Made by a program: the position numbers and the translations under genes. Shown piece by piece: positions 3,267-55,208 of a DNA stretch of 64,000 nt (position 1 is its first letter; the number at the start of each line of letters is the position of its first letter). The notes below the pieces were generated by a model. The model worked only from the letters and a program-made list of their open reading frames with translations. It searched no databases and was not told the origin of the DNA. This DNA is from Candidatus Methylomirabilota bacterium (GTDB taxonomy: Bacteria; Methylomirabilota; Methylomirabilia; Methylomirabilales; 2-02-FULL-66-22), in NCBI GenBank assembly GCA_016209735.1, contig JACQVN010000009.1, positions 30,381-94,380 on the forward strand. Direction: 5' to 3'.

Positions 3267-3290
3267 GGGCGGCCCTGTGTGGCCGCCCGG
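3263..3290 (+). repeat. GTAG-REP hairpin (GTAGGGGCGGCC-N6-GGCCGCCC), copy 1
   Basis: GTAG followed by the inverted repeat GGGCGGCC/GGCCGCCC. Its TAG is the stop codon of the upstream CDS. Confidence 0.8.
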
Positions 3291-3377: not shown

Positions 3378-3408
3378 GGTGTAGGGGCGGCCCCATGTGG
3401 CCGCCCGG
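3378..3408 (+). repeat. GTAG-REP hairpin, copy 2
   Basis: GGTGTAGGGGCGGCCCCATGTGGCCGCCCGG. Confidence 0.85.
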
Positions 3409-3431
3409 CAGCAGGCAGAAGTCAGCGTTCG

Positions 3432-3462
3432 GGTGTAGGGGCGGCCCCATGTGGCCGCCCGG
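3432..3462 (+). repeat. GTAG-REP hairpin, copy 3
   Basis: Identical 31-mer to copy 2, in direct orientation 54 nt downstream. Confidence 0.85.
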
Positions 3463-3760
3463 CAGCAGGCTGGGGAACAGACTGTGGACCATGGACAATG
3501 GACAGCAGGGCGCGGTGAACGTGAAACGTGGAACGTTGAACGTGCGAAGGGCCCCGAACCCCCGAACCCGCCTGCGGCGGATCTCCGTCCCGCCACAGGC
3601 GGGACTCCGACCCGTACTGCCGTACCGTCGCACTCCCGAACCCGTTCCTGTTCCTGTATCGTCCTACCCCCGTACCCCCGTACGGTCTTTACCATGCGCT
3701 TTGCGCCATGCGCCTTGCGCTTTGCGCCACGCGCCACCTGTGGCGGGGGTGCGATAGGTG
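3463..3760. repeat. Composite spacer of short repeat modules
   Basis: Module order is GGACCAT units, AACGTGR units, a CCCGCC...GGCGGG hairpin, CCGTACC units, then CATGCGC/TTGCGCC units. The same order is seen at 6937-7215 and 34716-34810. Confidence 0.8.
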
Positions 3761-5674: not shown

Positions 5675-5780
5675 ATTGGCGAGCGTTCACCAAAAATAGG
5701 GGACGTTGCGCTACAAGTTCTATAACTCCTCCCCCCTCACTCGAGGCATTGAGAACCTTCGGCTCGGGGCCTCATGGCCT

Positions 5781-5857
5781 TATCAGCGATCAGCGATCGG
5801 CTTTCAGCGAAGGGCTAGAGATGCGGGCTGATAGCTGAATACTGAACGCTGATAGCC
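5781..5857. repeat. Heptamer (ATCAGCG)n with a partially inverted partner (GCTGATA)n
   Basis: tatcagcgatcagcgatcgg ... gctgatagctgaatactgaacgctgatagcc. Confidence 0.6.
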
Positions 5858-5921
5858 TTCCTTTTCCCTTGCGGCGCCGTTTCGCGGCGTGGTAGACTCG
5901 CTTTGCGACGAGGGAAAAGGC

Positions 5922-6958: not shown

Positions 6959-7215
6959 ACGTGCGAAGGCCGCCGTACCGCCGTACCGCCGTACTGCTTT
7001 TACCATGAGCTATGAGCCATGAGCCCGGTCCAGGGAAGCAGGGAGCAGAGGGGCACGGGAGCTGGGGGAGCGGAGGGGCGAAGGAGCAGGGAGGGACGGA
7101 CCGTGGACCATGGACGATAGACCACGGACAATGGGAACGCATAGGGGCAGAGGGGCTCAGAGGAACGGATCATGGACCATAGACCATGGACCATGGATGA
7201 TGGACGATGGACCGC
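6937..7215. repeat. Composite spacer: AACGTGR units, CCGTACCG units, CATGAGC units, G-rich stretch, GGACCAT units
   Basis: Tandem units read directly. The module order matches 3516-3735. Confidence 0.8.
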
Positions 7216-8804: not shown

Positions 8805-8847
8805 GTTGACCGCAGTGCCGGCAGAAGGGCACGGACCATGAACGACT

Positions 8848-9040
8848 GGCTCGTGGCTGATGGCTGATGGCTGATGGCTCATGGGGGACCGGTCTCTACC
8901 ATGAGCTATGAGCCATGAGCCCCATCCGGGGAAGTAGGGAGCAGGGGCGCAGGGGAGCGGAGGGTAACGGACGATGGATGGGGGACCAGGGACGATGGGC
9001 GATGGACCAGGGACGATGGACCGTGGACGTGGCAGCCTGG
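8848..9040. repeat. (GGCTGAT)n / (CATGAGC)n imperfect foldback, followed by GGACSAT-type units
   Basis: ggctgatggctgatggctgatggctcatgg ... ccatgagctatgagccatgagcc. The downstream flank parallels 7003-7215. Confidence 0.7.
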
Positions 9041-12955: not shown

Positions 12956-12964
12956 ATGCTGTTG

Positions 12965-13148
12965 CGGTTCACGGTGCGGCGGTTCACGGTGCGGCGGTTG
13001 GGGCTCCAGCGGTTCACGGTGCGGCGGTTCAAGCCTCGAAGTGTCAACCTTGAACCTTGAACCTCGAACCGTCAGCCTCGAACCCTGAACCTCGAACCTT
13101 CAACCGTGAACCGTCAACCTCGAACCTTGAACCGGAAACCTTGAACCC
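12965..13148. repeat. (GGTTCACGGTGCGGC)n followed by (GAACCTYG)n arrays
   Basis: Three 15-mers, then about 12 GAACC-containing octamers, running up to the lepA start. Confidence 0.85.
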
Positions 13149-15092: not shown

Positions 15093-15486
15093 ATGGTTGG
15101 ACGACAGCCGCTCGATGAGCAAGACAGGAAACGCGGGGACGAGCTTGCCGAGCGCTTGCTCGATTTCTCCGATCAAAATCATCGCCTTGGCGTCCCGCCT
15201 TCCCGGTGATCCAGTTGGCCGGCACATCTCCAACCAGATGGTCAGGGCCGGGACATCGGTCGGCGCTCACTACGAGGAAGCGCGGGGAGCCGAAAGCCGA
15301 GCCGATTTCGTCCACAAGCTTGGCGTGGCACTGAAAGAATGCCGGGAGGCGCGGTACTGGCTCAGGGTTGTCCACCGCGCCAAGATGATTCCGGACGATC
15401 TTCCCGGGGCCCTCATCTTGAAGGCCAACGAGCTGTGCGCGATCCTCGGACAGTGTATCCTCACCGCGAAGTCTCGACAGGACTGA
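15093..15486 (+). pseudogene. Four-helix-bundle protein (23S rRNA IVS protein / Avd-like, PF05635 type) with an apparent 1-nt frameshift near 15168-15176
   Basis: Frame A from ATG 15093 gives ...DELAERLLDFSDQ. The frame of ORF 15097 gives IIALASRLPGDPVGRHISNQMVRAGTSVGAHYEEARGAESRADFVHKLGVALKECREARYWL. Together they reproduce the family pattern ER.IDF..RII.L...LP. The shift lies in gatcaaaatcatc. Confidence 0.65.
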
Positions 15487-20841: not shown

Positions 20842-20872
20842 GGTGTAGGGGCGGCCCTATGTGGCCGACCGG
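20842..20872 (+). repeat. GTAG-REP hairpin, copy 4
   Basis: GGTGTAGGGGCGGCCCTATGTGGCCGACCGG. Confidence 0.8.
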
Positions 20873-20910
20873 GCAGAGGTCCAAGGTCAGAGGGCACAGG
20901 GCAGGGATTG

Positions 20911-20942
20911 GGTGTAGGGGCGGCCCCATGTGGCCGGCCCGG
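20911..20942 (+). repeat. GTAG-REP hairpin, copy 5
   Basis: GGTGTAGGGGCGGCCCCATGTGGCCGGCCCGG. Confidence 0.8.
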
Positions 20943-21329
20943 CGGGCGAGCTGGCAGCTGGCAACGGGCCGAGCCGCAGCGGGCAGGGGAACAGACCATG
21001 GACCGTGGACCATGGACCGTGGACCATGGACGATGGACCGTGGACCATGGACCACGGGAGAGCAGGGGAGCAGAGGAGCGGGGGGCCGAGGGGCGTAGCG
21101 CACAGGGCAGCGGGCAGAAAGCAGAAGGCAGCGGGCGACAGGTGATCCGGAGGCGGTGACGCGTAGCACGTAACGCGTAAGACGTAAAGCGTGAAACGTG
21201 AAACGTAATACGTAAAACGTAAATCGTAAAACGTGAGAGGCAGCGATGCTTCCTGCGGGTGTTCGTTCGCTGCCTGCTGCCCGCTGTATCGTGCTGCCGG
21301 CTGCCTGCTGATTTCCGCTGGGAGAACGG

Positions 21330-27182: not shown

Positions 27183-28333
27183 AGGTGCGGGGCTATTTCT
27201 CCCGGAGGGCGGGCTTCGCTGCCGATCGCGTGACCCTGCCGTCGACCCCTCCGCCCACCGTGGAAGAGGCCCTCGGCAGCGGCGCGTTTCTCCTGGAGCA
27301 GGCCGGCATCGAGAGCGCTCGCCTGGATGCCGAGTGCCTGTTGGGGCATGCCCTCAGCCTGCCGCGCTGGAGGCTGGCCGCGGCCCCGCAGCGCCGCCTC
27401 AGCCCCGAGGCGTTCGTGGCCTACCTCAGCCTGCTGGAGCGGCGCGAGCGGCGGGAGCCCCTGGCCTACCTGGTGGGTGGGCGGGAGTTCTGGTCGTTGC
27501 CCCTGGCGGTGAGCCGGAATGTCCTGGTGCCGCGTCCGGAGACCGAAACCGTGGTGGAAGTCGCCCTGGCGGTCTGCTACGGGACAGACCCGCTGGGGCT
27601 CGAGCCGAGCGCCGAGCGCCGAGCGCCAAGCGCCAAGCGCCAAGCGCCGAGCGCCGAGCGCCGAGCGCCGGGGACCGGGGACGGCGGGCGGCCGTCACCC
27701 TCGAACCGCGAATCCCGCCTGGCGGCGGGATCTGCGTCCCGCCGAGGCGGGACTTCGACCGCGAACCTGGAACCTCGAACTTGGAACCTGAAACCTGAAA
27801 CCTCGAATCTCTTGATCGTGGACCTGTGCACGGGGAGCGGGGCCATCGCCATTGCCCTGGCCCGCGAGCTCCCCTCGGCCACGGTGCTGGCCTCCGATAT
27901 CTCCTGGCGGGCGCTCCGCGTGGCGCGCGCCAACGCCGCCGAGCAAGGGGTTGCGGAGCGGATCACGTTCCTGCGGGGGAGCGTCTGGCGGGCGGTGGCC
28001 GGGGCCCTGGGGGACCGGCAGGCAGACGTGGTGGCCGCCAATCCTCCCTACATTCCCAGCGGCCGGATCCCGGCCTTGATGCCCGAGGTGCGCTGGGAGC
28101 CGCGGCGGGCCCTGGACGGCGGCCCCGACGGCCTGGCGATCATCCGGGACATCGTGGCGGGGGCCCCGCAGCACCTCCGGCCGGGCGGCGTGCTGCTCCT
28201 GGAGGTCGGGGCAGATCAGGGGAACGCGGTCACCGCGATGCTGGGGATCGCGGGCGCGTTCGAGGCCTGGCGCGTCGTGCCGGACCTGGCAGGGCTTGAC
28301 CGCGTCGTCGTGGCGCGACGACGCGGCAAGTGA
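27179..28333 (+). CDS. prmC: Release-factor glutamine N5-methyltransferase PrmC, with a roughly 70-aa in-frame repeat insertion
   Basis: LAYL.GGREFW...L.V...VLVPRPETE, then the insertion, then [15 protein letters not shown] and ANPPY (NPPY motif). ATGA overlap with prfA. Confidence 0.85.
27601..27808 (+). repeat. Three repeat modules inside prmC: (GCCGAGC/GCCAAGC)n, a CCCGCC..GGCGGG hairpin, and (GAACCTSG)n
   Basis: Units identical to the intergenic families at 37551-37590, 3575-3615 and 13040-13148. Confidence 0.85.
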
Positions 28334-28680
28334 AAAGTTAAAACCGACAACCGACAAGTTAAAACCGACCTGCCGGCGCCGCTGGCGCGGCAGGCAGGCA
28401 ACCGACAAGTAAAGCCGACAACCGACGAGGCAAGAGTGACTAAAGACAAGGCAAGAGGCAAGATGGACAACCGATCCTGCGGTCCGCAAGGCAAACCGAT
28501 GAATGGATTGCTGTCGTAGATGCTCCCGCCTTCGCCGGACTGCTCTTACATTTTAACTTGTCGGTTGTCGGTTTTGCATTTTAACTTGTCCACCCGGGGC
28601 GGATCGGCTTTTCATTTTGCCTTGTCGGTTGTCGGTTTTAACTTTTGACTTGTCGGTAGTCCGTTTTGCATTCCGCCGGA
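28331..28680. repeat. AT-rich foldback filling the prmC-murA spacer
   Basis: 28331-28359 (gtgaaaagttaaaaccgacaaccgacaag) pairs with 28621-28649 (cttgtcggttgtcggttttaacttttgac) at 28 of 29 positions. Further inverted units lie inside, plus a CCTGCC..GGCAGG palindrome. Confidence 0.85.
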
Positions 28681-29944: not shown

Positions 29945-30428
29945 CATGTTAAAATGCAAAACCGACAACGGACAAGTCAAAAGTTAAAACCGACAACCGA
30001 CAAGTGAAAAATTGAGGCCGCAACCGACAACGGACAAGTGAAAAGTTAAAGCCGAGAATGGACAGCGGTGTCGTGTCTCCCTGCAGAATTGCCCGACATA
30101 TCCAGGGCGTATCCTCCCGGCGTCATTCCCGCGCAAGCGGGAATCCAGATTTGGGCCATCCCCGAGTGAGGCATTCGGAGACGGGTGGGCTTCCGCTCCC
30201 CGATAGGGGCTTTCTGGGACAGGCTTCACGGGAGCGATGAGAGTTTTCATGACCGCACTCGTGCAAACGCAGAGATGTTGCCGGATATATCGAGGAGTGC
30301 TGCTATCAGACACCAGTCCTACTCCTTCGGCTGGTATCACTTTTGACTTGTCGGTTGTCGGTTTGAACTTGTCGGTTCGCACTTGTCGGATTTGACTTGT
30401 CGGTTGTCGGTTTTGCATTTTAACTTGA
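29945..30428. repeat. AT-rich foldback filling the murA-hisG spacer, with a unique core of about 270 bp
   Basis: 29948-29978 (gttaaaatgcaaaaccgacaacggacaagtc) pairs with 30394-30424 at 30 of 31 positions. The core contains a GTCATTCCCGCGCAAGCGGGAATCCAG hairpin. Confidence 0.85.
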
Positions 30429-36422: not shown

Positions 36423-37148
36423 ATGGAGATCATCCCGGCGATCGATGTCAGGGGTGGGCGGGTTGTTCGCCTCGTGCAGGGCGATCCCGCCCGGGAAACC
36501 CGCTACGGCGATGACGCGGCGGCCGCGGCTTGCGAGTGGGAGCGGCGCGGGGCCAGGCGGCTCCACGTGGTGGACCTGGACGGGGCCTTGGCCGGGGCGC
36601 CGGCGAATCGCCAGGCCGTGCGGGCCATCCTGGCGTCGGTGCAGATTCCCATCCAGGTCGGCGGCGGCCTGCGCAGTCTCGAGGCAGTACGGGATCTTCT
36701 GGGATCGGGCGTGACGACGGCTGTCCTGGGAACGGCGGCAATACGGGACCCCGCATTTCTGGCGGCGGCCTGCGCCGCCTTTCCGGGGCGGGTCGCCCTG
36801 GGGCTGGACGCCCGTGCCGGCATCGTGGCCGTGTCGGGCTGGGCCGAGACAACCTCCGTCCTGGCGGCCGACCTGGCGCGGCAGGCCAGCGGGCTTCCCC
36901 TGGCGGCCATCATCTATACCGACATCAGCCGCGACGGCATGCTCTCGGGGCCGGACCTGGACGGGCTCCGTGCCATCGCGGAGGCGGCCCGGCTCCCGGT
37001 CATCGCCTCCGGCGGAATCGCTTCCGCGGCAGACATTGCCGCGCTCCGCAGCCTGGTGCCCTTGGGGCTCCGCGGGGCTATCATCGGCAAGGCCCTGTAC
37101 GACGGCCGCCTGAGTCTGGAGGCGGCGCTGGCGGCGGGAGGGGGCTGA
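36423..37148 (+). CDS. hisA: 1-(5-phosphoribosyl)-5-[(5-phosphoribosylamino)methylideneamino]imidazole-4-carboxamide isomerase
   Basis: [31 protein letters not shown], and ASGGI. Confidence 0.9.
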
Positions 37149-37972
37149 TGCTGGCCAAGCGAATCATTCCGTGTCTGGATGTGAAGGATGGCCGGGTGGT
37201 GAAGGGTACTCGCTTCGTGAACCTGCGGGATGCGGGCGACCCGGTCGAGGTGGCGGCGCTCTACGATGCGCAGGGGGCCGACGAGCTGGTCTTCCTGGAC
37301 ATCACGGCCTCCCACGAGCGCCGCCGGATCATGATCGACGTAGTCGCGCGGACGGCCGACCAGGCTTTCATGCCCCTCACGGTGGGGGGCGGGATTCGCT
37401 CCCTGGAGGACATCCGGGATCTCCTGAAGGCCGGCGCCGACAAGGTGTCGCTGAACACGGCGGCGGTGGAGCAGCGGGAGCTGATCCGACGGGCCGCCGA
37501 GCGGTTCGGCAGCCAGTGCATCGTTCTGGCCATCGACGCCAAGCGGCGCGGAGAGCCGAGAGCCGAGCGCCGAGCGCCGAGCGCCGGGGAGGAGTCTCGG
37601 CGCCCGGTGCCCGGTGCCCGGTGCTCGTGGGAGGTGTTCGTTCACGGGGGGCGGACGCCCACGGGAAAGGATGCCGTGGCCTGGGCCGTGGAAGGGGAGC
37701 GGTTCGGCGCGGGGGAGATCCTCCTGACCAGCATGGATCGGGACGGGACCAAGAGCGGATACGACCTGGATCTCACCCGTGCCATTGCCGAGGCCGTGGG
37801 CATTCCCGTGATCGCCTCGGGCGGGGCGGGGACGCTGGCCCACCTCTACGACGGCCTGACGGCAGGCAAGGCGGACGCGGCGCTGGCGGCATCTATGTTC
37901 CACTATCGCGAGGTCACGGTCGCGGAGGTGAAGCGGTATCTGGCAGAACGCGGCGTGCCGGTGAGGCTCTGA
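37148..37972 (+). CDS. hisF: Imidazole glycerol phosphate synthase cyclase subunit, with a roughly 25-aa in-frame repeat insertion
   Basis: [54 protein letters not shown], and IASGGAG. ATGA-type overlap with hisA. Confidence 0.9.
37551..37627 (+). repeat. (GCCGAGM)4 plus (GCCCGGT)3 heptamers inside hisF
   Basis: gagagccgagagccgagcgccgagcgccgagcgccgg...cgcccggtgcccggtgcccggtgctcg. Encodes [24 protein letters not shown]. Confidence 0.85.
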
Positions 37973-37983
37973 CCACGGACGGC

Positions 37984-38089
37984 AGACCATGGACCATGGA
38001 CGATGGACCATGGACGGGGGACCGCGGACCATGGGACCCGCGGTTAATCCGATGTGCTCCTATGGTCCATCGTCCATGGTCCATGGTCG
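37984..38089. repeat. Long hairpin whose arms are (GGACCAT)n tandem repeats
   Basis: 37984-38013 (agaccatggaccatggacgatggaccatgg) matches the reverse complement of 38060-38089 at 28 of 30 positions. The loop is about 46 nt. It lies directly after the hisF stop. Confidence 0.85.
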
Positions 38090-38110
38090 CTTCTCGGAAG
38101 GAGGTCGCTC

Positions 38111-38593
38111 ATGGAATTCCAGGCGGTGAAGATCGAGACTCCGGAGGGGGCCAACGTCATCCTGGGGCACAGCCACTTCATCAAGACCGTCGAGGACCTT
38201 TACGAGATCCTTGTCACCACGCTGCCCGGGGGCAAGTTCGGCCTGGCTTTTTCCGAGGCCTCGAGTCCCTGTCTCATCCGATCTGCGGGAAACGACGAGA
38301 CCCTGCGCGAAGTCGCGGTGCGCAACACCCAAGCGGTTGCGGCAGGCCACTTCTTCGCGGTGGTTCTCAAGCAGGCCTTCCCCATCAACGTGCTGAACGC
38401 TCTCAAACAGTGTCAGGAGGTCTGCAGTATCTTCTGTGCATCGGCCAATCCGGTGGAGGTCATCGTGGCGGTCACGTCCCAGGGACGGGGGGTCATGGGG
38501 GTGGTGGACGGCTTCCCGCCGAAGGGGGCAGAGTCCCCCGCGGATGTCGCGGCTCGGAAGGAGTTCTTGCGGAAGATCGGATACAAGATGTAA
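38111..38593 (+). CDS. Adenosine-specific kinase family protein (PF04008-like)
   Basis: GHSHFIKTVEDLYE, FGLAFSEAS.P.LIR..GND, AFPINVLNALK, NPVEVIV...QGRGVMGVVDG, and FLRKIGYKM match the archaeal/bacterial PF04008 pattern as I recall it. Confidence 0.7.
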   Translation: MEFQAVKIETPEGANVILGHSHFIKTVEDLYEILVTTLPGGKFGLAFSEASSPCLIRSAGNDETLREVAVRNTQAVAAGHFFAVVLKQAFPINVLNALKQCQEVCSIFCASANPVEVIVAVTSQGRGVMGVVDGFPPKGAESPADVAARKEFLRKIGYKM

Positions 38594-38595
38594 GA

Positions 38596-38688
38596 GCAAT
38601 GCAAAATGAAAAATGCAAAATGAAAAACCGGTCAATGCTGCTGGCCATTGCTCGGTTTGCAATTTTTCATTGTCCGTTTTGCATTGAT
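38596..38688. repeat. AAATGCAAAA-type AT-rich hairpin directly after the stop codon
   Basis: gcaatgcaaaatgaaaaatgcaaaatgaaaaaccgg ... ggtttgcaatttttcattgtccgttttgcattg. Confidence 0.8.
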
Positions 38689-38708
38689 TGTCTTGCCCAG
38701 AGGGGCAG

Positions 38709-46974: not shown

Positions 46975-46984
46975 CGGTACAATC

Positions 46985-47069
46985 ACCAAGGACCAAGGAC
47001 CAAGGACCAAGGACCAAGAACAGGGGCACCTTCGGGTCCGTCTCCATTGGGATTTGGTCATTGGTCATT
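46985..47069. repeat. (CAAGGAC)n and (TTGGTCA)n heptamers after the rpoD stop, forming an imperfect foldback
   Basis: caaggaccaaggaccaaggaccaaggaccaag ... gatttggtcattggtcattg. Confidence 0.7.
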
Positions 47070-47088
47070 GAGAATTCGCACAGCGATT

Positions 47089-47165
47089 GGGCCCATAGCT
47101 CAGTTGGTTAGAGCCACCGGCTCATAACCGGACGGTCGCAGGTTCGAGTCCTGCTGGGCCCACCA
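47089..47165 (+). tRNA. tRNA with CAT anticodon (elongator Met, or Ile2 if lysidine-modified), CCA encoded
   Basis: Hand-folded cloverleaf: acceptor GGGCCCA/TGGGCCC, D arm GCTC-AGTTGGTTA-GAGC, anticodon arm CCGG-CTCATAA-CCGG, T arm GCAGG-TTCGAGT-CCTGC, then A-CCA. Confidence 0.9.
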
Positions 47166-47179
47166 CCAAAATCCCCAAG

Positions 47180-47214
47180 AAAAGCCCGTCTGACGCCATG
47201 TTAGACGGGCTTTT
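47180..47214 (+). terminator. Rho-independent terminator just after the tRNA
   Basis: AAAAGCCCGTCT-gacgccatgtt-AGACGGGCTTTT. Confidence 0.8.
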
Positions 47215-47421
47215 GCATTCAGGAGAAGTGGGGTGCCGTTATGCGCGTTCTTGCACTTTCTTGCCGTTTTTCTGTAGCGAACCGGCACCTGTACCGGCAC
47301 TTGAGGCCATACCCCTGGGGAGTATACATGGGGGCACCTACCCCCCCGGCAAGGCCAGGGGGGCATAGGCAGGGACAGGTGGTCTTCGGTATCGAAAGGC
47401 TGAAACGCCTGGAGGTGTAAC

Positions 47422-47658
47422 GTGCGGCTATTCGGGCGGGTTGCCATCATGCGGTATCTCGGCTACAGCGGGACTTGCCATCACACCTGGGCGAGCATCC
47501 GCCAGCGGTTCTCCGGCGCGATCTACCGTGACGTGGACAATGGCCGGGTGTGGGCAGAGGGGGAACATCTAGATGCTTTGCGGTCTGCCGGCGATCCTGC
47601 GGCGGCCCTGCGGCGACTCCAGCGCCAAGTTGAGCGGTTCGAGACGCGGAGATCGTGA
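47422..47658 (+). CDS. Hypothetical small protein (island-borne)
   Basis: 78-aa ORF with a GTG start. No recognisable motif. Confidence 0.3.
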   Translation: MRLFGRVAIMRYLGYSGTCHHTWASIRQRFSGAIYRDVDNGRVWAEGEHLDALRSAGDPAAALRRLQRQVERFETRRS

Positions 47659-47832
47659 CGGGGACCTGTTTACGCCGTCTTGCGGACTATCGAAACGCCA
47701 CGGGCTTGCAAGCATCGCAGACAAAGTGTAGCGTGTGAAGCACTCCCCTGGCCTAGGGTAGCTCCCGAAAAGCCGCTTCCCGAGCGGCCTGGCCGGGGAA
47801 CCTCTCGGGGCTCTGCATCAGGGAGGAGCATC

Positions 47833-48453
47833 ATGCCACGTCGCCCTGACCGGCCGCTGCCCCCGCCACACTTGGTTTTCCCCGCGCTTTTTGGTGAAGC
47901 TGCTCAAGATGAGCGGCCGATGGATGCAGGCACGCGTGAAAGATTCTCCGACGCCTGCATAGAGGGCCTGCTGTCCCGCCTGGAAGCCAAGGATGACAAG
48001 GAGAAATTCCTCCGGGAGCTGATACCTGAGTTGCAACGGAGATTTGAACGGGGAATCACCGGGGGGGCGGTTTACCGTATTCTTCGACACGCAAAGCCCG
48101 CCCGCAAGAACGAACGCCCTAGCTGCAAGCCTGGCCTGCTACTCTATCACTACGCCCTAGCGGAGAAATTGCTGAGGGGCATTCTCGTTTCAAATCGGCA
48201 AGCAGCAAAACGCGCAGACGCTCTAGTGAAATACGCCGATGCACTCAATACACGCCTGAATGAGGAGTATCGCTGCGACGACTGCGGACGCAAAACCATT
48301 CCTCCAGACGACTTCAGAGAATGGGCTCTCAGGAAACATACAGAGCGGGAGATAATCCTGAAGCTCTTGGCCTACCACCACCACGGCTTTTCTCCCGACA
48401 GCCTGCGCCGGCTACTCGACAAGGCCGCTCAACAGAATCGGCCTCTCCGCTGA
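47833..48453 (+). CDS. Hypothetical protein (island-borne)
   Basis: ATG preceded by GGGAGGAG. 206 aa, with a CDDCGRK motif. GC is lower than the chromosome in its 3' half. Confidence 0.4.
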   Translation: MPRRPDRPLPPPHLVFPALFGEAAQDERPMDAGTRERFSDACIEGLLSRLEAKDDKEKFLRELIPELQRRFERGITGGAVYRILRHAKPARKNERPSCKPGLLLYHYALAEKLLRGILVSNRQAAKRADALVKYADALNTRLNEEYRCDDCGRKTIPPDDFREWALRKHTEREIILKLLAYHHHGFSPDSLRRLLDKAAQQNRPLR

Positions 48454-48582
48454 CAATCTCGCTACTTATTTGATACGCGAAGCTTCCTGAAAAAGTCGCC
48501 AAACCTGGTTTGTGCGCCACGTACCCTTCGTGCAGGCACCATTTGCAGATTATCACGGTTTGCCGCATGGAGGAGACAAGCG

Positions 48583-48783
48583 ATGGATTACATCACGGTT
48601 GACGAGGCTGCTGAACTGACGGGATGGACACGGGCCACATTGTATTCGAAAGCGAGCAGAAGGCAGATCCCGAGCTACCGGATAGGACGGTCCTTGCGTT
48701 TTCGTCGGCAGGACATGCTAAACCTGTTCAGGCCCCGCCCCGCCCTGCGCCCGCTGGCCGACAAGGAAGGGGGCGAGTCATGA
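48583..48783 (+). CDS. Excisionase-family / MerR-like helix-turn-helix DNA-binding protein
   Basis: ITVDEAAELTGWTRATLYSKASRRQIPSYRIGRSLRFRRQDM matches the excisionase-type HTH pattern. GGAGGAG RBS. The stop overlaps the next start. Confidence 0.7.
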   Translation: MDYITVDEAAELTGWTRATLYSKASRRQIPSYRIGRSLRFRRQDMLNLFRPRPALRPLADKEGGES

Positions 48784-50843
48784 GCGCCCCCACCATTGCC
48801 CCCACGAAGACCAAGACGCACCTTGACGCGGCTCTTGACTATCATGCACTCGACTGGACCGTCATTCCGGTGAGTGCCGACAAGAAACCCCTAGACTTCA
48901 TAAAGTGGGGACGCTGGCGCAACCAGCGCCAAACCGAGGCCGAGGTGCGGGCCCTGCCGTGGCATCGGGCCTATGGTATCGCCCTACTTACCTGGCCCGT
49001 CTCCGACTTGGTGGTGGCGGACTTCGACGGTCCGCACGCCGAGGAAGCGTGGCAGGTGAAAGGCAAGCCGCTCCCCGACACGGCGCGGACCCGCACTAGG
49101 AGCGGGGGGAAGCACCTGGTTTATCATCCCCCCGCTGGCATCGAGCAGTTCACGGACGACAACGGCGGAAAGCCCAAGCGCAAAATACGACTGATCGAGG
49201 CCGACTGCGACTGCATGAAGGACGGCCACCCGAAACCGTGCGGGGTGGATGTTCTGGTCAACGGCTATTTCATTGTTCCGCCGTCTCCGGGGTATGTGGA
49301 GGACCCTGACTGGCCCCTTGAACCCACGAACATTGTCACCATCCCGCACGAAGTCTTAGACCTTGCCCGTGGGACTCAGGGTTCGCCCAGGAAAGCGGAG
49401 GTGTCATCCGAGCCTAATTGGTACGGGGAGGCCATGCGGGGGCCCGTCCCGCAGGGTCAGCGGAACGAAACTGCCACCCGGCTGGCAGGACTGCTACTTG
49501 CGAAGGGGTTGAGCGCCGACTATGTGACGGACACCTTGACCCCGTGGGCTGAGCGAACATGCGCCCCGCCGATGGACCTGCGCGAGCTGCGGGCCACGGT
49601 GCAGAGCGTGGCGCGGCGGGAAGCCACCAAGCCCACGTTTGCCGATGAGCCCGACCCGGAGCCGAGCGACACGGTGCTAGGGCGGTTCCCTGAGAAAGCA
49701 TGGCGCGGCATCTTTGCCACCTACCGCGAGGCCATGCGGGAGGCCACCCACGCGCCCGAGGTGGCGATCTTCACCGGGTTGTGGGCAGCGGCAGCGGCAA
49801 GCCTGGCCCGCCGTGTCCACTTCTACCTCGGCATGGAGATATTTCCCAATGTGGCCCTCGCGGTGTACGGCGACACAGGCGACGGCAAGACGACCGGGAC
49901 ACGCCACGGGGTAGACCGGCTGCGCCTCCTGGGCGATCACGTCGGCGTGCTGCGTGGAAGCGGTAGCGGCGAGGCGGTGGTGGACTGGCTGCGCGGCGAA
50001 AAGGACGCTCACTTGTGGTACGCCGAAGAATACTCCGAGATCCTGATCCGGGCCGGGTGGGACGGGGCCACGATCAAGAGCACGATCACCACCCTGTACG
50101 ACTGCCCTGAGACGTTCGAGTTGAAATTCCGGCGCGACAAAGACGCTACGCCACTCACTAGGCCGACGCTCAACCTGTTGGTCTGCACGACGCCGGCGAC
50201 GTTCTGGAAATACCTGCGGGACGACGATATAGAAAGCGGGTTCGGCAACCGCTGGCTGTACCTGGCAGGGGACCAGCGCCCGACCATCCCACGGCCCGCC
50301 CGCCCGGATGAAAAATTGCTGGCCGTGGTGGAAGAGGCCCTGGCGCGGCTCACCGGGTTGACCCCGACCGAGTGCGCCCTGGCGCCCGACGCGGAACCGC
50401 TTTGGGATGAATTCTACCGGGCGTGGGAAGCGGAGAAGCTGCAACCATTGACCCGCATGGCAGCCAAGCGGGTGCCGCAGTATGTCCTGAAACTGGCCAT
50501 GCTGTACGCGGCCCTTGAGGGGACGGTGCCCACCCTGACGGCCGAGCAATTGGTGGCGGCGATCATGGTAGGGAAGTATGCGACCGACTGCGCGGACCGG
50601 CTCATGCGGGACCTAAAGCCTGGGGGGTTTCGGAACCGGCTGGAGATCCGCGTTCAGGAGATCCTGAAACACGATCCACTGCCCATGTACAAGATCCAGC
50701 GTCAGGTGGGGGGCAACGTGGCGGTGGAAGATCTTGACCGGACGATCCGGGCGCTGGACCGGGCGGGAATGATCGAGGTGATAGGCAAAACACCGAAGCA
50801 ACTGCCCGTCTGGGGCCGGGTGGGGGTGGACTATGGGAAATAG
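48780..50843 (+). CDS. Bifunctional primase-polymerase (Prim-Pol) with PriCT-like and P-loop helicase (DUF3987-like) domains
   Basis: W.VIPV...KKP...W, VVADFDG (DxD), SGGKHLVY, GQRNETATRLAGLLLAKG (PriCT-like), and the Walker A-like GDTGDGKTT. Confidence 0.8.
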   Translation: MSAPTIAPTKTKTHLDAALDYHALDWTVIPVSADKKPLDFIKWGRWRNQRQTEAEVRALPWHRAYGIALLTWPVSDLVVADFDGPHAEEAWQVKGKPLPDTARTRTRSGGKHLVYHPPAGIEQFTDDNGGKPKRKIRLIEADCDCMKDGHPKPCGVDVLVNGYFIVPPSPGYVEDPDWPLEPTNIVTIPHEVLDLARGTQGSPRKAEVSSEPNWYGEAMRGPVPQGQRNETATRLAGLLLAKGLSADYVTDTLTPWAERTCAPPMDLRELRATVQSVARREATKPTFADEPDPEPSDTVLGRFPEKAWRGIFATYREAMREATHAPEVAIFTGLWAAAAASLARRVHFYLGMEIFPNVALAVYGDTGDGKTTGTRHGVDRLRLLGDHVGVLRGSGSGEAVVDWLRGEKDAHLWYAEEYSEILIRAGWDGATIKSTITTLYDCPETFELKFRRDKDATPLTRPTLNLLVCTTPATFWKYLRDDDIESGFGNRWLYLAGDQRPTIPRPARPDEKLLAVVEEALARLTGLTPTECALAPDAEPLWDEFYRAWEAEKLQPLTRMAAKRVPQYVLKLAMLYAALEGTVPTLTAEQLVAAIMVGKYATDCADRLMRDLKPGGFRNRLEIRVQEILKHDPLPMYKIQRQVGGNVAVEDLDRTIRALDRAGMIEVIGKTPKQLPVWGRVGVDYGK

Positions 50844-51255
50844 GCTACCAACCTACCAACCTGTAAGTGTGGTTGCCAACCGGGGTTCCGGGGTTGGCAG
50901 GTTGGCAACCATATCTCCGTTGCAAGCCCTGGTGGACCGATTGGAGAATGCGCCACCACCGGAAAGAGGATCGGGCGACCCCCTGGCCCTTCTCCTGGTG
51001 ACCCGACTTGACCATTTGGCCGAGCCGCTGGCGGTGGTGTCGTCTGTCCTGCGTGAGACCATATACCTGGTGGCGAATGATCGGCAGGCAGCGGCGGTCA
51101 GGGCGAAGGGCGGGACCCCGTACACCCCGCCCGAGGTGGCGATCCTGCGGGACCTGTACGCGGCGGTACGCCCCGAGGTGTGGGCCGAACGGTTGCGGCT
51201 GATCCACCAGGCCAAGCGCACATTTGATGGCGACGTGCGCGGGAGCGCGGCATGA
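50833..51255 (+). CDS. Hypothetical protein (start uncertain; the 5' end overlaps a cluster of CCAACC iterons)
   Basis: 140-aa ORF with no motif recognised. Confidence 0.3.
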   Translation: MGNRLPTYQPVSVVANRGSGVGRLATISPLQALVDRLENAPPPERGSGDPLALLLVTRLDHLAEPLAVVSSVLRETIYLVANDRQAAAVRAKGGTPYTPPEVAILRDLYAAVRPEVWAERLRLIHQAKRTFDGDVRGSAA

Positions 51256-51301
51256 GAAGCGAGGCGCGTCCACCCCCTCCGGGAGCGAAATGGTGAGCAA
51301 C

Positions 51302-52363
51302 CTACCTCAGAAGGTTTGGGAAAAAGCGGATGAGCAGCAACAAAAGGACACCCATTCCAATTGTGATGACCCAGACCCGAAGCGAGCGGAGAGCCCATGA
51401 CACGCTTTGAAGCTCACTCTGCACTTCGTCTCGAAACTCTACGAGGTTCTCATCTGCTGGAGGCTTTCGTGGCTCCCGCGACGTGGAAATAGCGGCTTCA
51501 CGGCATGCACTATCAGAATCTTCCCTCCCCAGTTTTAGGGTTTCCTTGTCGCGGAAGTCGCAGCTATAAAGGATTACCTGCCGGAGATCGGGGTCTTTCT
51601 GGGCTCGGTAGACCTTGGCCTTTGTCGAATCGGGCGCAACAACGGTTTCATAAATCGCACATGGTATCCCACTCTTGGCCGGCCACGTTCCGGCAAGCTC
51701 CCAGAGGCGCAAGAGGTATTGTTCGACCCCCCCGGCATAATCAATCAGGTGCTCGTCATAGCCGGTCTCGTCAATGAGCGTTTTCCTTCTTCGTTGAAAC
51801 TTGTTCTGTTTCACCAGGCTCTCGTTCGTGAGGTAGGCAACAATCAACCCCGTACGCTCTTTAGTGCTGATGCCAAGCTCTTTCTTCTGGTAGTCAAAGA
51901 GTTTCTCGATGAATAGTTCAGGTACTTCTGGATTCCGAACTAACGCGAGACGTTCCAAGGGGCTGGATCTCTGAAACCGCTCCCCGAAGTCCGACCAGAG
52001 CGCTGACAGGCCAGGGCAAATGACTTTGTTCTCAAGCAAACAAGCACGAACGAATGGGTCCGGATCGTTCTGAAGACGCCCCTCTAGGTTCCGTTCCGGG
52101 AGGCTGTATGTCAGCTTATCACCGTCGGAGTGACACTCACGGAAATCGAGGATCTTGCCATGGCGGGCGATCCATGCCCTAAGCTGTGGGTTTGGATCTT
52201 CGACGGCACGGAGCACGATCTCGTAAGGGGGCCCAATCAGAGGAGTTCTGTAGACCTTTCGTAACAGACGAATGCGGCCCACAACGTCAGACGCTTCGTA
52301 CTCCCGCCGCACTTCCTCCAGAGTGTAGGCATCATAGATTGAGTACCTCGTCAGCCTGTTCAT
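51302..52363 (-). CDS. HEAT/LRV-like repeat protein with a C-terminal transmembrane anchor (island cargo)
   Basis: Repeats EDPNPQLRAWIARH, NDPDPFVRACLLEN, VRNPEVPELFIE and KDPDLRQVILYS. C-terminal VWVITIGMGVLLLLLIRFF. Visibly lower GC than its surroundings. It is the only intact minus-strand gene in the window. Confidence 0.6.
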   Translation of the reverse strand: MNRLTRYSIYDAYTLEEVRREYEASDVVGRIRLLRKVYRTPLIGPPYEIVLRAVEDPNPQLRAWIARHGKILDFRECHSDGDKLTYSLPERNLEGRLQNDPDPFVRACLLENKVICPGLSALWSDFGERFQRSSPLERLALVRNPEVPELFIEKLFDYQKKELGISTKERTGLIVAYLTNESLVKQNKFQRRRKTLIDETGYDEHLIDYAGGVEQYLLRLWELAGTWPAKSGIPCAIYETVVAPDSTKAKVYRAQKDPDLRQVILYSCDFRDKETLKLGREDSDSACREAAISTSREPRKPPADENLVEFRDEVQSELQSVSWALRSLRVWVITIGMGVLLLLLIRFFPNLLR

Positions 52364-52519
52364 GGTCGCACCTCTCGGTGGATGGGAGTGAAGATGCGGC
52401 AGGTAATTCGGACCACGGTTACGGCCGGGACGTTATCAGGAGGCGGATGCCATGTCAAATATCCCCCTGGGGCAAGTTACCCCTTGACAGCGCAATAGAG
52501 AGTGCTTATGATAATAATC

Positions 52520-52771
52520 ATGCCACTCAAGACGATAGCGCAGCAAGTGCAAACCTGGCGGGAACACCGAGAGTTGAGTCAGCGGGCGCTGGCGAAAGCG
52601 GCGGGCGTGGCCCCGGTGTTGGTGCAGAAGATCGAGGCCGGGGCCATCGTTGACCCCCGCCTGTCCAGCCTGCGCAAGCTGGCGGGGGCCCTGGGCGTGA
52701 CGGTGGGCGAGTTGGTGGACGGGAGCCCGGCGAAGGCCAAGAAGCGGCCCACGAAGCGGGCCGGGAGGTAG
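52520..52771 (+). CDS. XRE-family helix-turn-helix transcriptional regulator
   Basis: WREHRELSQRALAKAAGVAPVLVQKIEAG...PRLSSLRKLAGALGVTVGELV. Lies immediately upstream of int and diverges from the cargo gene. Confidence 0.75.
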   Translation: MPLKTIAQQVQTWREHRELSQRALAKAAGVAPVLVQKIEAGAIVDPRLSSLRKLAGALGVTVGELVDGSPAKAKKRPTKRAGR

Positions 52772-54040
52772 GTGAACATGGACGCGAAGGCCGAGCACGT
52801 GATCGTGATCCCGGAAGCGTGGGCCGAGGCCCAAGTCAACGCCGTCGCCGTCGAAGTGGAGAAGCGGACGAAGCGGAAGGGGAAGAAGGAGGAGCCCCCC
52901 GCCAAGGTGCGCGGGGTGTTCTTCCGACCGAACGCGAACGGCCAAGTCAAGGACCATCTCGGCCGACTCGGAGACTGGTGGTGCCGCTACACCGACCTGG
53001 CTGGCATGGAGCATCGGGAGAAGGCCGGAAGCCGACCTGCAGCCATTGACTTGTACGGGCGGCGACGGTCGGAGGTACGCCAGGGGAAGCAATTCCCCGA
53101 GAGCCTGCGGAACCTGCGGAAAGCCTCACTGGCCGAAGTCTGCCACGACTACCTTGTGTCGCTGGCGGCGAACGGGCGGGACGCCAGGGGCCAAGCGGCG
53201 TTTCGACTATCCGAGGTGCAGAGCATTCTCGGTGCGGTTGCGGCGGAGACGGTGACGCCCCAGGAGATCGAGAAGCTGAAGGCGAAGTTGGCCGAGACTC
53301 CGGCCCGTGGGCGGAAGGATCCCCAGGACCCGAAGAAAGAGCGCCCCCGAGCCCCAGGCAGCGCAAACCGCTACCTGCAAGACCTCCGGGCGGCGTTCAA
53401 CGTGGCCCGACGCAACGGGAAGGTGGAGAAGAACCCCGTGGGTGACGTGCGGCTGCTGCGGGAGAACAACAAGCGCGTGCGGGAGATCACAGCCGACGAA
53501 GAAAAGGCCATCCTGACGGCGCTGGACCCCCAAGAGCGGCGGTTTCATACCGATCTGCGCCCGATGGTAAAGCTTCTGCTGGAGACCGGCCTACGGGCCG
53601 GCGAGGCGTGCCGCCTGCGCTGGCCTGACGTGGACTGGCGGGCCGAGGTGGCGACCCTGCCCAAGACGAAGGCCGGGGCGGCGCAGCATGCGGCCCTGAA
53701 CGCCGCTGCCCTGGCGATCCTCCGGGCCCTCGGCCCCCAGGGTGACGGTTACGTGTTCGCGTGGAAGGGCGGGCGGCCGTGGACGGTGGGCTACCTGACT
53801 CACGCCTTCCACAAGGCGGCCCTCAAGGCGGCCGTGGTGGACGTTCACCCTCACGACTGCCGCCACACGTTCGCCTGTCGGCGTCTGCGGGCCGGCGTGG
53901 ACATCTTCGCCGTGTCGAAGCTGCTCCGGCATGCATCGGTGACGATGAGTGAGCGGTACGCGCACCTTTCGCAAGCGGACCTGAAGGCGGCGGTTGAGCG
54001 TGCATCTCCGACGCCGACCGGCACTCCAACCGGCACCTGA
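52772..54040 (+). CDS. int: Tyrosine-type site-specific recombinase / integrase
   Basis: C-terminal catalytic region ...LLLETGLRAGEA (Arg I), HDCRHTFA (HxxR), and LLRHASVTMSERYAHL (catalytic Tyr). ATG 52778 is the more likely start. Confidence 0.9.
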   Translation: MNMDAKAEHVIVIPEAWAEAQVNAVAVEVEKRTKRKGKKEEPPAKVRGVFFRPNANGQVKDHLGRLGDWWCRYTDLAGMEHREKAGSRPAAIDLYGRRRSEVRQGKQFPESLRNLRKASLAEVCHDYLVSLAANGRDARGQAAFRLSEVQSILGAVAAETVTPQEIEKLKAKLAETPARGRKDPQDPKKERPRAPGSANRYLQDLRAAFNVARRNGKVEKNPVGDVRLLRENNKRVREITADEEKAILTALDPQERRFHTDLRPMVKLLLETGLRAGEACRLRWPDVDWRAEVATLPKTKAGAAQHAALNAAALAILRALGPQGDGYVFAWKGGRPWTVGYLTHAFHKAALKAAVVDVHPHDCRHTFACRRLRAGVDIFAVSKLLRHASVTMSERYAHLSQADLKAAVERASPTPTGTPTGT

Positions 54041-54094
54041 AAAACGGGGCGGCTGTAAATGCTTGCCATTGCGACGGTTCAAGAGATAGACCAT

Positions 54095-54143
54095 CCGGCT
54101 CATAACCGGACGGTCCCAGGTTCGAGTCCTGGTGGACCCACCA
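54095..54143 (+). repeat. attR: duplicated 3' half of tRNA(CAT)
   Basis: CCGGCTCATAACCGGACGGTCcCAGGTTCGAGTCCTGgTGGaCCCACCA. It has three differences from the tRNA, two of which are a compensatory T-stem pair swap. Confidence 0.85.
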
Positions 54144-54203
54144 CAGTCGCGTAAAATATGTACTTATGCTACCTTGCTCCTCAACGAACAAGTGGAGGTG
54201 CGT

Positions 54204-55208
54204 ATGCCCCGTGGCCCGCGACTGGATGCCCCCGGCGTTCTGCACCATGTCATGGTGCGAGGCCTGGATCGGCAGGTCATTTTCCGAGATGACCGGGACC
54301 GGGACGACTTTGTCGCGCGCCTCGCCGGTCTTGTTGAGGCAGGCGCGTGGACGATTTATGCCTGGACGCTTCTCCCAAATCACGCCCACCTGCTCGTGCG
54401 GACGGCCCGGCGTCCACTGGCACGTACCATGCGCTCGCTCCTCACCGGGTATGCGGGCACCTTCAATCGGCGGCATAAGCGGAGCGGACACCTCTTCCAG
54501 AACCGCTACAGATCCATCGTGGTCGAGGAAGATCCATACTTTCTCGAACTCGTCCGCTACCTCCACCTCAATCCATTGCGGGCCGCTATCGTCACTGACT
54601 GGCGGGCATTGGAGCGTTATCCGTATTGTGGGCACGGAGCGATCCTCGGGAAGCAGGAGGTTGACTGGCAGGAAACAAGTGCGGTCCTCCGCCAGTTCGC
54701 AGAGCGCCTGCCCACCGCGCGGGCACGATACCGGACCTTCGTGGCGGAGGGTGTCTCTCGCGGGCGACGGCATGATCTGATGGGGGGCGGCCTCATTCGT
54801 AGCGCTGGAGGGTGGGCCGCCGTAGCCGTCCTTCGCCGCGGGCGTGAGCGGTATGCAGGCGACGAACGGATTCTGGGCAGCAGTGAATTCGTCGAGACGT
54901 TGCGTGGGGAGATCGAGCGGACGGAAGCCGGGCGCCTGCACGCGAGGTGGCGCAAGCTCACCGCAGCTGCTCTGATAGCACGGATAGCTACTGCCGAGAA
55001 GGTCCCTGTGGAGCGTCTTCTGGGCTCGGGCAGGCCCCGGACAGTCTCTCGGATCCGTCGGGGCCTCGCCTACCTTTGGGTCGAGGAACTGGGCAGGAGC
55101 GGCCGGGCCCTTGCCCGGGAGCTTGGAATCTGTCCGGAAGCAATCTACCACGCGGCAGTGCGGGGACGGAAGGAAGCCGTGTATTGGCAAGCAATGCTGG
55201 AATCGTAA
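54204..55208 (+). CDS. IS200-like Y1/HUH transposase of the REP-associated (RAYT) type, with a C-terminal DnaA_C-like HTH
   Basis: HVM.RG..R..IF.DD.DR..F, the HUH motif LLPNHAHLLV, GHLFQNRY.S, and the catalytic Tyr region YFLELVRYLHLNP. The C-terminal RIRRGLAYLWVEELGRSGRALARELGI is HTH-like. GGAGG RBS. Confidence 0.75.
   Translation: MPRGPRLDAPGVLHHVMVRGLDRQVIFRDDRDRDDFVARLAGLVEAGAWTIYAWTLLPNHAHLLVRTARRPLARTMRSLLTGYAGTFNRRHKRSGHLFQNRYRSIVVEEDPYFLELVRYLHLNPLRAAIVTDWRALERYPYCGHGAILGKQEVDWQETSAVLRQFAERLPTARARYRTFVAEGVSRGRRHDLMGGGLIRSAGGWAAVAVLRRGRERYAGDERILGSSEFVETLRGEIERTEAGRLHARWRKLTAAALIARIATAEKVPVERLLGSGRPRTVSRIRRGLAYLWVEELGRSGRALARELGICPEAIYHAAVRGRKEAVYWQAMLES

Follow-up and report, generated by a model that had tools for sequence, protein, structure and literature searches.

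In the 64,000-nt stretch of Candidatus Methylomirabilota DNA analyzed here (contig JACQVN010000009.1 of assembly GCA_016209735.1, positions 30,381 to 94,380 of the forward strand; hereafter the window), the gene hisF is followed by a long hairpin whose two arms are tandem arrays of complementary heptamers. The hairpin is confirmed as real, and it is one of dozens of fast-changing, repeat-armed inserts in the genome. On balance, we favor the interpretation that it represents a genome-wide class of non-coding foldback inserts with tandem arms of 7- or 8-nt units, and that this class is the counterpart in the NC10 lineage of the heptamer arrays of Xanthomonas and Nostoc.

The hairpin occupies the spacer between hisF and a gene of the adenosine-specific kinase family. 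The features of this region, with the methods from which they derive, are as follows (TRF, Tandem Repeats Finder):

37148..37972 (+), hisF, 274 aa; gene call, with tblastn matches to relatives at 75-87% aa identity
37971..38034 (+), 5' tandem array of about nine heptamers of the form GGAC-NNN, a direct-repeat family; TRF rows of period 7 and period 21
37985..38011 (+), 5' stem arm, 27 nt, purine/G-rich; inverted repeat, 100% complementary
38012..38061 (+), 50-nt loop containing an inner 7-bp stem (ACCGCGG at 38021-38027 with CCGCGGT at 38038-38044); fold
38062..38088 (+), 3' stem arm (ATGGTCC)n, about four units, pyrimidine/C-rich; TRF, inverted repeat and fold
38100..38104 (+), Shine-Dalgarno sequence GGAGG of the kinase gene; ViennaRNA minimum free energy and partition function
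38111..38593 (+), adenosine-specific kinase family gene, 160 aa; PF04008 (E 1e-73) and synteny
38597..38686 (+), repeat-armed hairpin of (AATGCAA/AATGAAA)n with a degenerate partner, 4 nt past the kinase stop codon; TRF, inverted-repeat catalogue and fold (z -2.8, computed on 38594-38700)

The TGA stop codon of hisF lies at 37970-37972 and is overlapped by the first repeat unit. The successive units of the 5' array read GACCACG, GACGGCA, GACCATG, GACCATG, GACGATG, GACCATG, GACGGGG, GACCGCG and GACCATG. The two stem arms are complementary at 27 of 27 positions across the 50-nt loop; when the slightly longer 30-nt arms of the original prediction are used, we obtain the same count of 28 paired positions that it reported. 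The predicted RNA fold of the hairpin has an energy of -91 kcal/mol, compared with -57.6 +- 4.4 for dinucleotide shuffles (z -7.5), and none of 200 shuffles equaled it. At the hairpin base in this predicted fold, the Shine-Dalgarno sequence of the kinase gene would pair with the last codons of hisF (37967-37970; pairing probability 0.64-0.85). A scan with a terminator consensus found no terminator at the hairpin, and a search of the window against Rfam 15 at gathering score returned two tRNA matches and int-alpA only, none of them at any hairpin. Searches of the hairpin loops with blastn gave no non-self matches for the hisF loop in the genome, and no target-site duplication is visible at the borders of the insertion.

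The hairpin was compared with the corresponding spacer of relatives. All 22 relatives with both genes have hisF next to the PF04008 kinase gene; the spacer is 11-43 nt in 17 of these and holds an AGGAGG ribosome-binding site only. Since the spacer is mostly this short in the 22 relatives and measures 139 nt here, the hairpin represents about 115 nt inserted within the operon. A look-up of the exact kinase protein yielded no record. The closest sequence available is a metagenome contig (L109; aa identity 87% for hisF and 91% for the kinase), which carries a homologous, shorter hairpin at the same site. Its left arm has fewer and different GGAC-type units and its right arm has two CATCGTC units, while the loop core GGGACCCGCGG is common to both hairpins. 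The hairpin was therefore inherited, with both arms changing in copy number and unit variants. Despite this change, the arms are perfectly complementary in the present genome.

Other lineages contain different, unrelated palindromes in the hisF spacer, so that it looks like a permissive site more than one with a required structure. For example, a MITE-like (miniature inverted-repeat transposable element-like) palindromic element, CAGGCTGCTGAAAAAGGCC ... GGACCTTTTTGAGCAGCCTG, follows the stop codon directly in the hisF spacer of L092, L110, L112 and L134-L137, as well as in another spacer of L248 that is described below (rpoD-like). Contigs L136 and L131 provide a filled and an empty site for this element, with hisF 3' ends that are otherwise identical. 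The best 80 hisF relatives in the species collection come from distant phyla only and none is cyanobacterial; together with a genomic GC content of 66%, this agrees with the GC-rich, non-cyanobacterial context that had been proposed from the letters of the window. In L082, L095 and L098, in addition, about 273-275 aligned residues of hisF extend over 861-900 nt, compared with 825 nt here, which suggests in-frame insertions inside hisF in these sequences.

Arrays of this kind were surveyed throughout the genome, a metagenome-assembled genome (MAG) of 1.69 Mb in 62 contigs with 66% GC and 69% completeness. Genes were taken from a crude codon-usage caller, for which stop codons are exact, start codons are approximate and coding density is 79.5%. 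Among TRF arrays with periods of 7, 8, 14, 16 and 28, 10-19% lie in genes and 81-90% outside them. There are 487 TRF rows of period 7 (82% outside genes), and merging yields 516 heptamer arrays. Altogether, the merged arrays of 7- or 8-nt units number 805 and fall into 341 unit families, the common ones being about equally frequent in either orientation. No universal unit core, such as the GNAC motif considered, is found across the 341 families, with GAAC/AACC and ATGG only modestly enriched.

These arrays are accompanied by inverted partners far above chance. Inverted pairs of same-unit arrays no more than 100 nt apart occur 35 times, compared with 3.65 expected from label permutation (maximum 10 in 300 permutations). 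This roughly tenfold excess bears out the co-occurrence of arrays and inverted partners on which the original prediction depended. Likewise, 169 of the 805 arrays have an inverted match with a score of at least 12 within +-250 nt, compared with 11-12 in complement and reverse controls. Direct matches are enriched in the same flank-match test (107 of the 805 arrays). The strong inverted repeats (score of at least 14) include 41 with both arms in TRF arrays.

Arrays and hairpins are both enriched at the 3' ends of genes, as had been anticipated. In 233 co-oriented spacers, the first array starts no more than 15 nt past the stop codon in 47% of cases and the last array ends no more than 15 nt before the start codon in 22%. 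The median distances in spacers of at least 300 nt are 48.5 nt from the stop and 181.5 nt to the start. Tandem-armed hairpins between co-oriented genes (n=32) lie a median of 13.5 nt from the stop codon, with 62% of them within 20 nt. The claim that the hairpins stand directly after stop codons therefore holds as a genome-wide statistical statement, and fails at one of the loci for which it was made: the hairpin at 5781-5857 lies at a distance of 170 nt from the upstream stop codon, with the next start about 30 nt further on. The share of spacer bases taken up by arrays is 0.061 where the flanking genes are co-oriented, 0.059 where they converge and 0.031 where they diverge. All 52 called genes of the window are on the + strand, and gene pairs across the genome comprise 935 co-oriented, 86 divergent and 74 convergent pairs.

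The polarity of the hairpins is fixed, with the G/purine-rich arm on the 5' side just past the stop codon and the C-rich arm beside the downstream gene. Adjacent complementary array pairs number 50, in 39 unit families. A G-rich arm is followed by a C-rich arm in 21 of these pairs and the reverse order is seen in four (p 9e-4); a purine-rich arm precedes a pyrimidine-rich arm in 27 pairs against five. Tallied by unit family, the polarity holds in 28 against three. Non-complementary neighboring arrays also tend to be G-rich first (47 vs 24, p 0.009). On the sense strand, arrays no more than 50 nt from a stop codon are G-rich in 65 cases and C-rich in 20, whereas the corresponding counts near start codons are 17 and 50 (Fisher odds ratio 9.6, p 2.6e-10). 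Since a palindrome is identical on both strands, the polarity of the hairpins is an intrinsic property and not a matter of orientation to genes. The 5' arm is longer in 19 cases and the 3' arm in 13, which is not a significant asymmetry (p 0.13). In 400 kb of another genome of the genus (G014), arrays are threefold sparser with a few inverted pairs, and 400 kb from another family (G039, 60% GC) contains 47 arrays, none of them forming a complementary pair; a polarity test would need larger samples than these two.

Repeat-armed hairpins also persist at fixed spacers across species while their unit sequence and copy number turn over. This is shown by two further spacers, which in the window contain the following features:

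46985..47070 (+), hairpin (ACCAAGG)4.9 ... (TTGGTCA)2.4 with one mismatch per unit; TRF, fold z -4.1 (46978-47078)
12964..13147 (+), weak foldback (GCGGTTCACGGTGCG)4.5 ... (GAACCTY)14.6; TRF, fold z -2.6 (12960-13100), with 3 of 200 shuffles equal

Both spacers carry repeat-armed hairpins across the genus, and the first does so in other families of the order as well. It lies between the stop codon of a 597-aa gene (46974), called rpoD-like by position only, and tRNA-Met (47089-47165). At this spacer, repeat-armed hairpins with a fold z of -4.2 or lower occur in seven of 19 measured relatives, including family f7, and a weaker one occurs in family f4 (L249, z -2.5). Their units are lineage-specific (GGCAAYT, AATGACC, GAGTTCA, GTTCACA). 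In G012 and G013, the arms read (AATGACC)n...(TTGGTCA)n and are followed by GGGAATTCG; the right arm is also kept in the present genome, where the left-arm units at 46985-47018 are ACCAAGG in five of five cases, a concerted change. Three relatives (G001, G003, G011) have a GC stem and a T-rich tail at this spacer instead.

The second spacer separates a 328-aa gene from lepA, and its foldback pairs through GGTTC/GAACC cores in the present genome. Most members of the genus have foldbacks here that are armed with GTTCRAC.../...GAACCTY or with AACCGAC. In G004 (L221), AACCGAC/GTCGGTT arms surround an open reading frame (ORF) of about 400 nt that resembles the four-helix-bundle proteins of 23S rRNA intervening sequences (IVS). 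The AACCGAC arms of G015 and G001 (L212, L232) enclose a short, gene-less loop, and the loops of G008 and G007 are intermediate.

Slippage combined with intrastrand template switching is the most likely mechanism behind these inserts. Arrays would lengthen and shorten by slipped-strand mispairing, while template switching within a strand, in the form of snap-back copying or quasipalindrome correction, would create the opposite arm and keep the two arms complementary. Template switching is documented in bacteria as a mechanism that makes and maintains hairpin stems (PMC7202029, PMC8794818), and when correction proceeds from the 5' base it can yield an excess of G(5')-C(3') pairs (PMC8794818). 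It predicts 5'-arm correction together with a G(5')-C(3') excess, and such an excess is seen here. Quasipalindrome correction is a mutational mechanism and not an element family, and we infer its action here. A purely independent expansion of the two arms does not account for the pairing of arrays with their own complement in 39 unit families. The snap-back reading of the original prediction stands in part: a 27/27 stem is most plausibly maintained by inverted copying or correction, while the sharing of one unit by both arms is not established as proof of it.

Folding would explain how such inserts survive in tight spacers. Because the insert folds away as a stem, the stop codon and the next Shine-Dalgarno sequence would stay close to each other, and translational coupling would be kept. 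The spacer that is left after subtracting the hairpin is 60 nt or less in 13 of 32 cases, which together with the predicted pairing of the Shine-Dalgarno sequence would fit a tolerance of self-folding inserts alone in coupled spacers. The G-rich-first polarity is perhaps favored through avoidance of Rho loading on the C-rich arm: as this arm emerges second it would pair at once, and so could not serve as a Rho loading site.

Several observations weigh against this interpretation. An inverted partner is not detected for about 80% of arrays, so hairpin formation is not obligatory. Many loci share unit families and multi-array blocks; local slippage alone does not explain this recurrence, which hints at spread between loci. 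At the 46985 locus, the arms have drifted apart, and the change of the left arm to ACCAAGG was not copied to the right arm. The hisF hairpin contains a variant unit mirrored in its arms (GACGATG/CATCGTC), but permutation of unit order gives p = 0.63 for it, and just one of 26 informative hairpins reaches p <= 0.05; the GACGATG unit was consequently dropped as proof of inverted copying, and this test of 26 hairpins provided no direct evidence of a template-switch event. Moreover, the block GGACCAT-GGACGAT-GGACCAT recurs at no fewer than six loci here and in G002, G007 and G018. The number of G:U pairs relative to A:C mismatches on the sense strand (26 vs 20) is not significant, a comparison of low power, and there is therefore no signature of selection on RNA pairing. 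Finally, the coupling and Rho arguments draw on a predicted fold and on reasoning only.

The hairpins may alternatively be selected RNA elements at gene 3' ends, an explanation we consider somewhat unlikely for the class. They would act as terminators without a U-tract, as barriers to 3' exonucleases or as processing sites, for example to separate the rpoD-like mRNA from tRNA-Met, and tandem arms would merely be an easy route to a long stem. Their location directly past stop codons is in line with this, as is their retention across families at the rpoD-like/tRNA-Met spacer despite complete unit turnover; the GC stem with a T-rich tail in G001, G003 and G011 at that spacer can be read in the same way. 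Canonical terminators are few in the genome (19 by a crude count), a stabilizing or coupling role has been proposed for cyanobacterial heptamer hairpins (PMC2670836), and the Xanthomonas repeats are mostly transcribed (PMC4692102). However, no U-tract follows the 3' arm, with a mean of 2.25 T in 10 nt and five or more T in only two of 32 hairpins. The hisF hairpin is inside an operon in which relatives manage with 11-43 nt and no stem, and the unrelated palindromes in the hisF spacer of other lineages and the lack of a G:U over A:C bias likewise count against selection on the RNA. A role as an mRNA 3' stem, either stabilizer or processing site, is possible. Classification of the hisF hairpin as an intrinsic terminator was rejected on account of the missing U-tract and its 50-nt loop.

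We regard it as unlikely that the hairpins derive from mobile foldback cassettes, whether as relics that have no gene or as non-autonomous versions. Such cassettes would consist of inverted arrays of 7-9-nt units around a small gene, such as one for a 23S-rRNA-IVS-type four-helix-bundle protein or a small nuclease, and the hairpins would relate to them as a MITE does to an insertion sequence. This origin is kept alive for some unit families by the lepA-spacer series, which runs from the ORF-bearing AACCGAC arms of G004 to the short-loop arms of G015 and G001, and by the recurrence of unit families and of the GGACCAT-GGACGAT-GGACCAT block at many loci and in other species. In addition, the genome has six PF05635 matches, one of which lies at 15178-15447 of the window between AACCGAC arrays, and composite array blocks are duplicated at 7003-7213 and 8899-9028. 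Set against this, the short loops are unique in the genome, the hisF loop among them, and the hisF insertion has no visible target-site duplication. The GGACCAT family was not seen to flank any gene, and the 39 pair-forming unit families far exceed the number of cassette genes found. The short hairpins are unlikely to have spread by copy-paste as MITEs, an element class defined by numerous nearly identical copies of full length that carry terminal inverted repeats and target-site duplications: each of their loops occurs just once in the genome, and no target duplication is visible at hisF. Taken together, the missing U-tract, the lack of a G:U bias and the unique loops indicate that the hairpins are neither terminators nor copy-paste MITEs. 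Assignment to repetitive extragenic palindromic (REP) sequences or their hairpin-forming doublets (REPIN) was also rejected, since a GTAG head is missing from the arms and no palindrome is shared by the whole family; genes resembling REP-associated tyrosine transposases (RAYT) are present, and no association with them was found, though none was tested for.

The remaining explanations are weaker. A dedicated process, in place of slippage and selection, might lie behind the fixed polarity, in which the G-rich strand runs 5'->3' toward the center of the dyad on either strand, the restricted set of shared units and the reappearance of this design in many phyla, although we consider this improbable. 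For example, breaks or nicks at gene 3' ends could be healed by templated addition of repeats to both 3' ends and then joined, or small cassette-borne proteins could carry out integration and excision; if true, the process would be an undescribed and widespread DNA transaction in bacteria. It is highly improbable that the arrays are G-quadruplex-forming or protein-binding sites on DNA or RNA, as GGGAATC repeats have been suggested to be, with incidental hairpins. G-rich arrays do occur on the sense strand past stop codons, as in Xanthomonas (PMC4692102), and many G-rich units contain Shine-Dalgarno-like GGAG/GGAGG, such as (AGGAGGC)n on contig C27; nevertheless, G3 tracts are absent from GGACCAT and most other units, the 341 unit families have no common core motif, and a specific binding protein is difficult to square with full unit turnover at the same site in relatives. 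An artefact of short-read MAG assembly through false palindromic joins or collapsed repeats can practically be dismissed: repeat copy numbers may be wrong in a 62-contig, 69%-complete MAG, but the hairpins are inside long contigs between conserved syntenic genes, and same-spacer hairpins occur in independent assemblies that include contig L109 and genomes of one and six contigs (G014, G005).

Among known repeat systems, the heptamers of Xanthomonas are a close parallel. In X. campestris and X. axonopodis, GGGAATC heptamers are tandem and dispersed in a genome of about 65% GC (Rehm et al. 2015, PMC4692102). They are enriched in spacers between co-oriented ORFs, with few between divergent ORFs, and 70-75 close opposite-strand pairs in 'convergent orientation' are capable of forming stem-loops (PMC4692102). 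The present arrays share the dispersed non-coding heptamers, the preference for co-oriented spacers, the bias of G-rich strands after stop codons and the convergent close pairs. They differ in diversity: Xanthomonas has essentially one unit family, compared with at least 39 pair-forming families with 7- and 8-nt periods here. The GGGNATC-type unit of Xanthomonas has G-tracts that can form a G-quadruplex, with four units preferred (PMC4692102), whereas the 341 families here are diverse and mostly without G3 tracts. Persistence at one site with turnover of the unit is seen here and is not described for the Xanthomonas repeats.

The resemblance to the short tandemly repeated repetitive (STRR) elements of heterocystous cyanobacteria, which was noticed in the original prediction, is apt. 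Both are intergenic, highly repetitive heptamer arrays that can fold into hairpins between genes of one operon. STRR sequences comprise a few unit sequences, and the present lineage belongs to another phylum with another base composition and has mostly different unit families. The TTGGTCA/AATGACC family, with 14 arrays in the genome, probably corresponds to the STRR2 unit. The canonical units STRR1-3 are said to have been defined by Mazel and colleagues in 1990, and Vioque reportedly described STRR heptamer hairpins in helix P12 of RNase P RNA in 1997. In Nostoc and Anabaena, STRR hairpins occur between operon genes such as hupS-hupL, for which roles in stability or translational coupling have been proposed (PMC2670836).

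Two other systems are less similar. REP sequences organized as bacterial interspersed mosaic elements (BIMEs) and associated with RAYT genes are hairpin-forming intergenic repeats at gene 3' ends and in operons, as are the elements described here, and the present genome has three RAYT-like Y1 genes as well as GTAG-headed, GC-rich palindromes that adjoin arrays. In contrast to the GTAG head and conserved palindrome of REP units, the repeat-armed hairpins have neither, and their arms are tandem arrays. The TAACTGA repeats of marine Beggiatoaceae comprise one unit in 169 direct sets and one inverted set (MacGregor 2015, PMC4679880). They point toward start codons and terminate 1 nt upstream of them, and some overlap upstream stop codons (PMC4679880). 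These repeats are likewise abundant intergenic heptamers outside cyanobacteria, but almost all of them are direct.

This kind of repeat has thus already been described in Xanthomonas and cyanobacteria, and our findings provide a new example and not a new kind. The class is poorly understood, and the present genome is a clear and rich example of it in a new lineage. Heptamer- and octamer-repeat foldbacks are extended to an uncultured, GC-rich lineage distant from both groups, where the same rules apply: the elements follow stop codons, a G-rich arm leads, and the two arms form an inverted pair. A single genome is able to hold dozens of unit families, and a spacer can keep a repeat-armed hairpin across genera while the repeated word is fully replaced. 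The hisF locus provides one reconstructed case in which a hairpin was inserted into a tight operon spacer. As a result, the class is a good natural system for studying how stems evolve by template switching and why long stems are tolerated or favored between coupled genes. Genome annotations should avoid labeling such inserts as terminators, MITEs or small ORFs.

The window contains several further foldbacks. In addition to those at 46985 and 12964, the original prediction had named two weaker hairpins, and all four fold better than shuffles (z -5.2, -4.5, -4.1 and -2.6). The features not yet listed are as follows (IR, inverted repeat):

8847..8921 (+), hairpin (TGGCTGA/TGGCTCA)n ... (CCATGAG)n; TRF, fold z -5.2 (8840-8930)
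5781..5857 (+), hairpin (ATCAGCG)n ... (GCTGATA)n; TRF, fold z -4.5 (5775-5865)
28327..28652 (+), foldback armed with AACCGAC/TTGTCGG, 262-nt loop, upstream of the EPSP-synthase gene; IR score 29
30022-30363, second AACCGAC/TTGTCGG foldback, downstream of the EPSP-synthase gene; IR score 19

The gene between the last two foldbacks encodes EPSP synthase (PF00275). The duplicated composite blocks at 7003-7213 and 8899-9028 are 2 kb apart, have the structure (CCATGAG)3 - (GGGAGCAG)n - (GGACSAT)n and show clear homology. Arrays of (GGAGCAGR)n and (GGACCRT)n are also neighbors on contigs C50 and C51 and around position 21000 of the window. On contig C27, a hairpin at 8917-9022 lies 5 nt from a stop codon and pairs a Shine-Dalgarno-like 5' arm, (AGGAGGC)n, with an anti-Shine-Dalgarno-like 3' arm, (CCTCCTG)n.

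Other observations concern mobile elements and tRNA genes. The GTAG-headed, GC-rich palindromes, GTAGGGGCGGCCC..ATGTGGCCGCCC, lie at 3266-3290, 3378-3410, 3435-3465 and about 20860-20990 with (GGCACAG)n arrays between them, and they resemble classical REP units of a BIME-like mosaic. The three Y1-transposase-like genes are found in the window at 54174-55208 (+) and on contigs C61 (39211-39534) and C60 (40869-41189). The copy in the window matches Pfam Y1_Tnp with 31.5 bits and the NCBIfam model 'REP-associated tyrosine transposase' with 61 bits, under its cut-off of 80 bits. ARAGORN calls a 98-nt tRNA-Thr at 3538-3635 (-) inside a region of repeat arrays, which is probably a false positive because there is no Rfam tRNA match there. 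Downstream of tRNA-Met at 47089-47165, an int-alpA RNA match lies at 47746-47810, and a weak tRNA match at 54076-54140 repeats the 3' half of the tRNA. The region of about 7 kb from 47089 to 54140 has the appearance of an integrated island in which the attachment site is duplicated.

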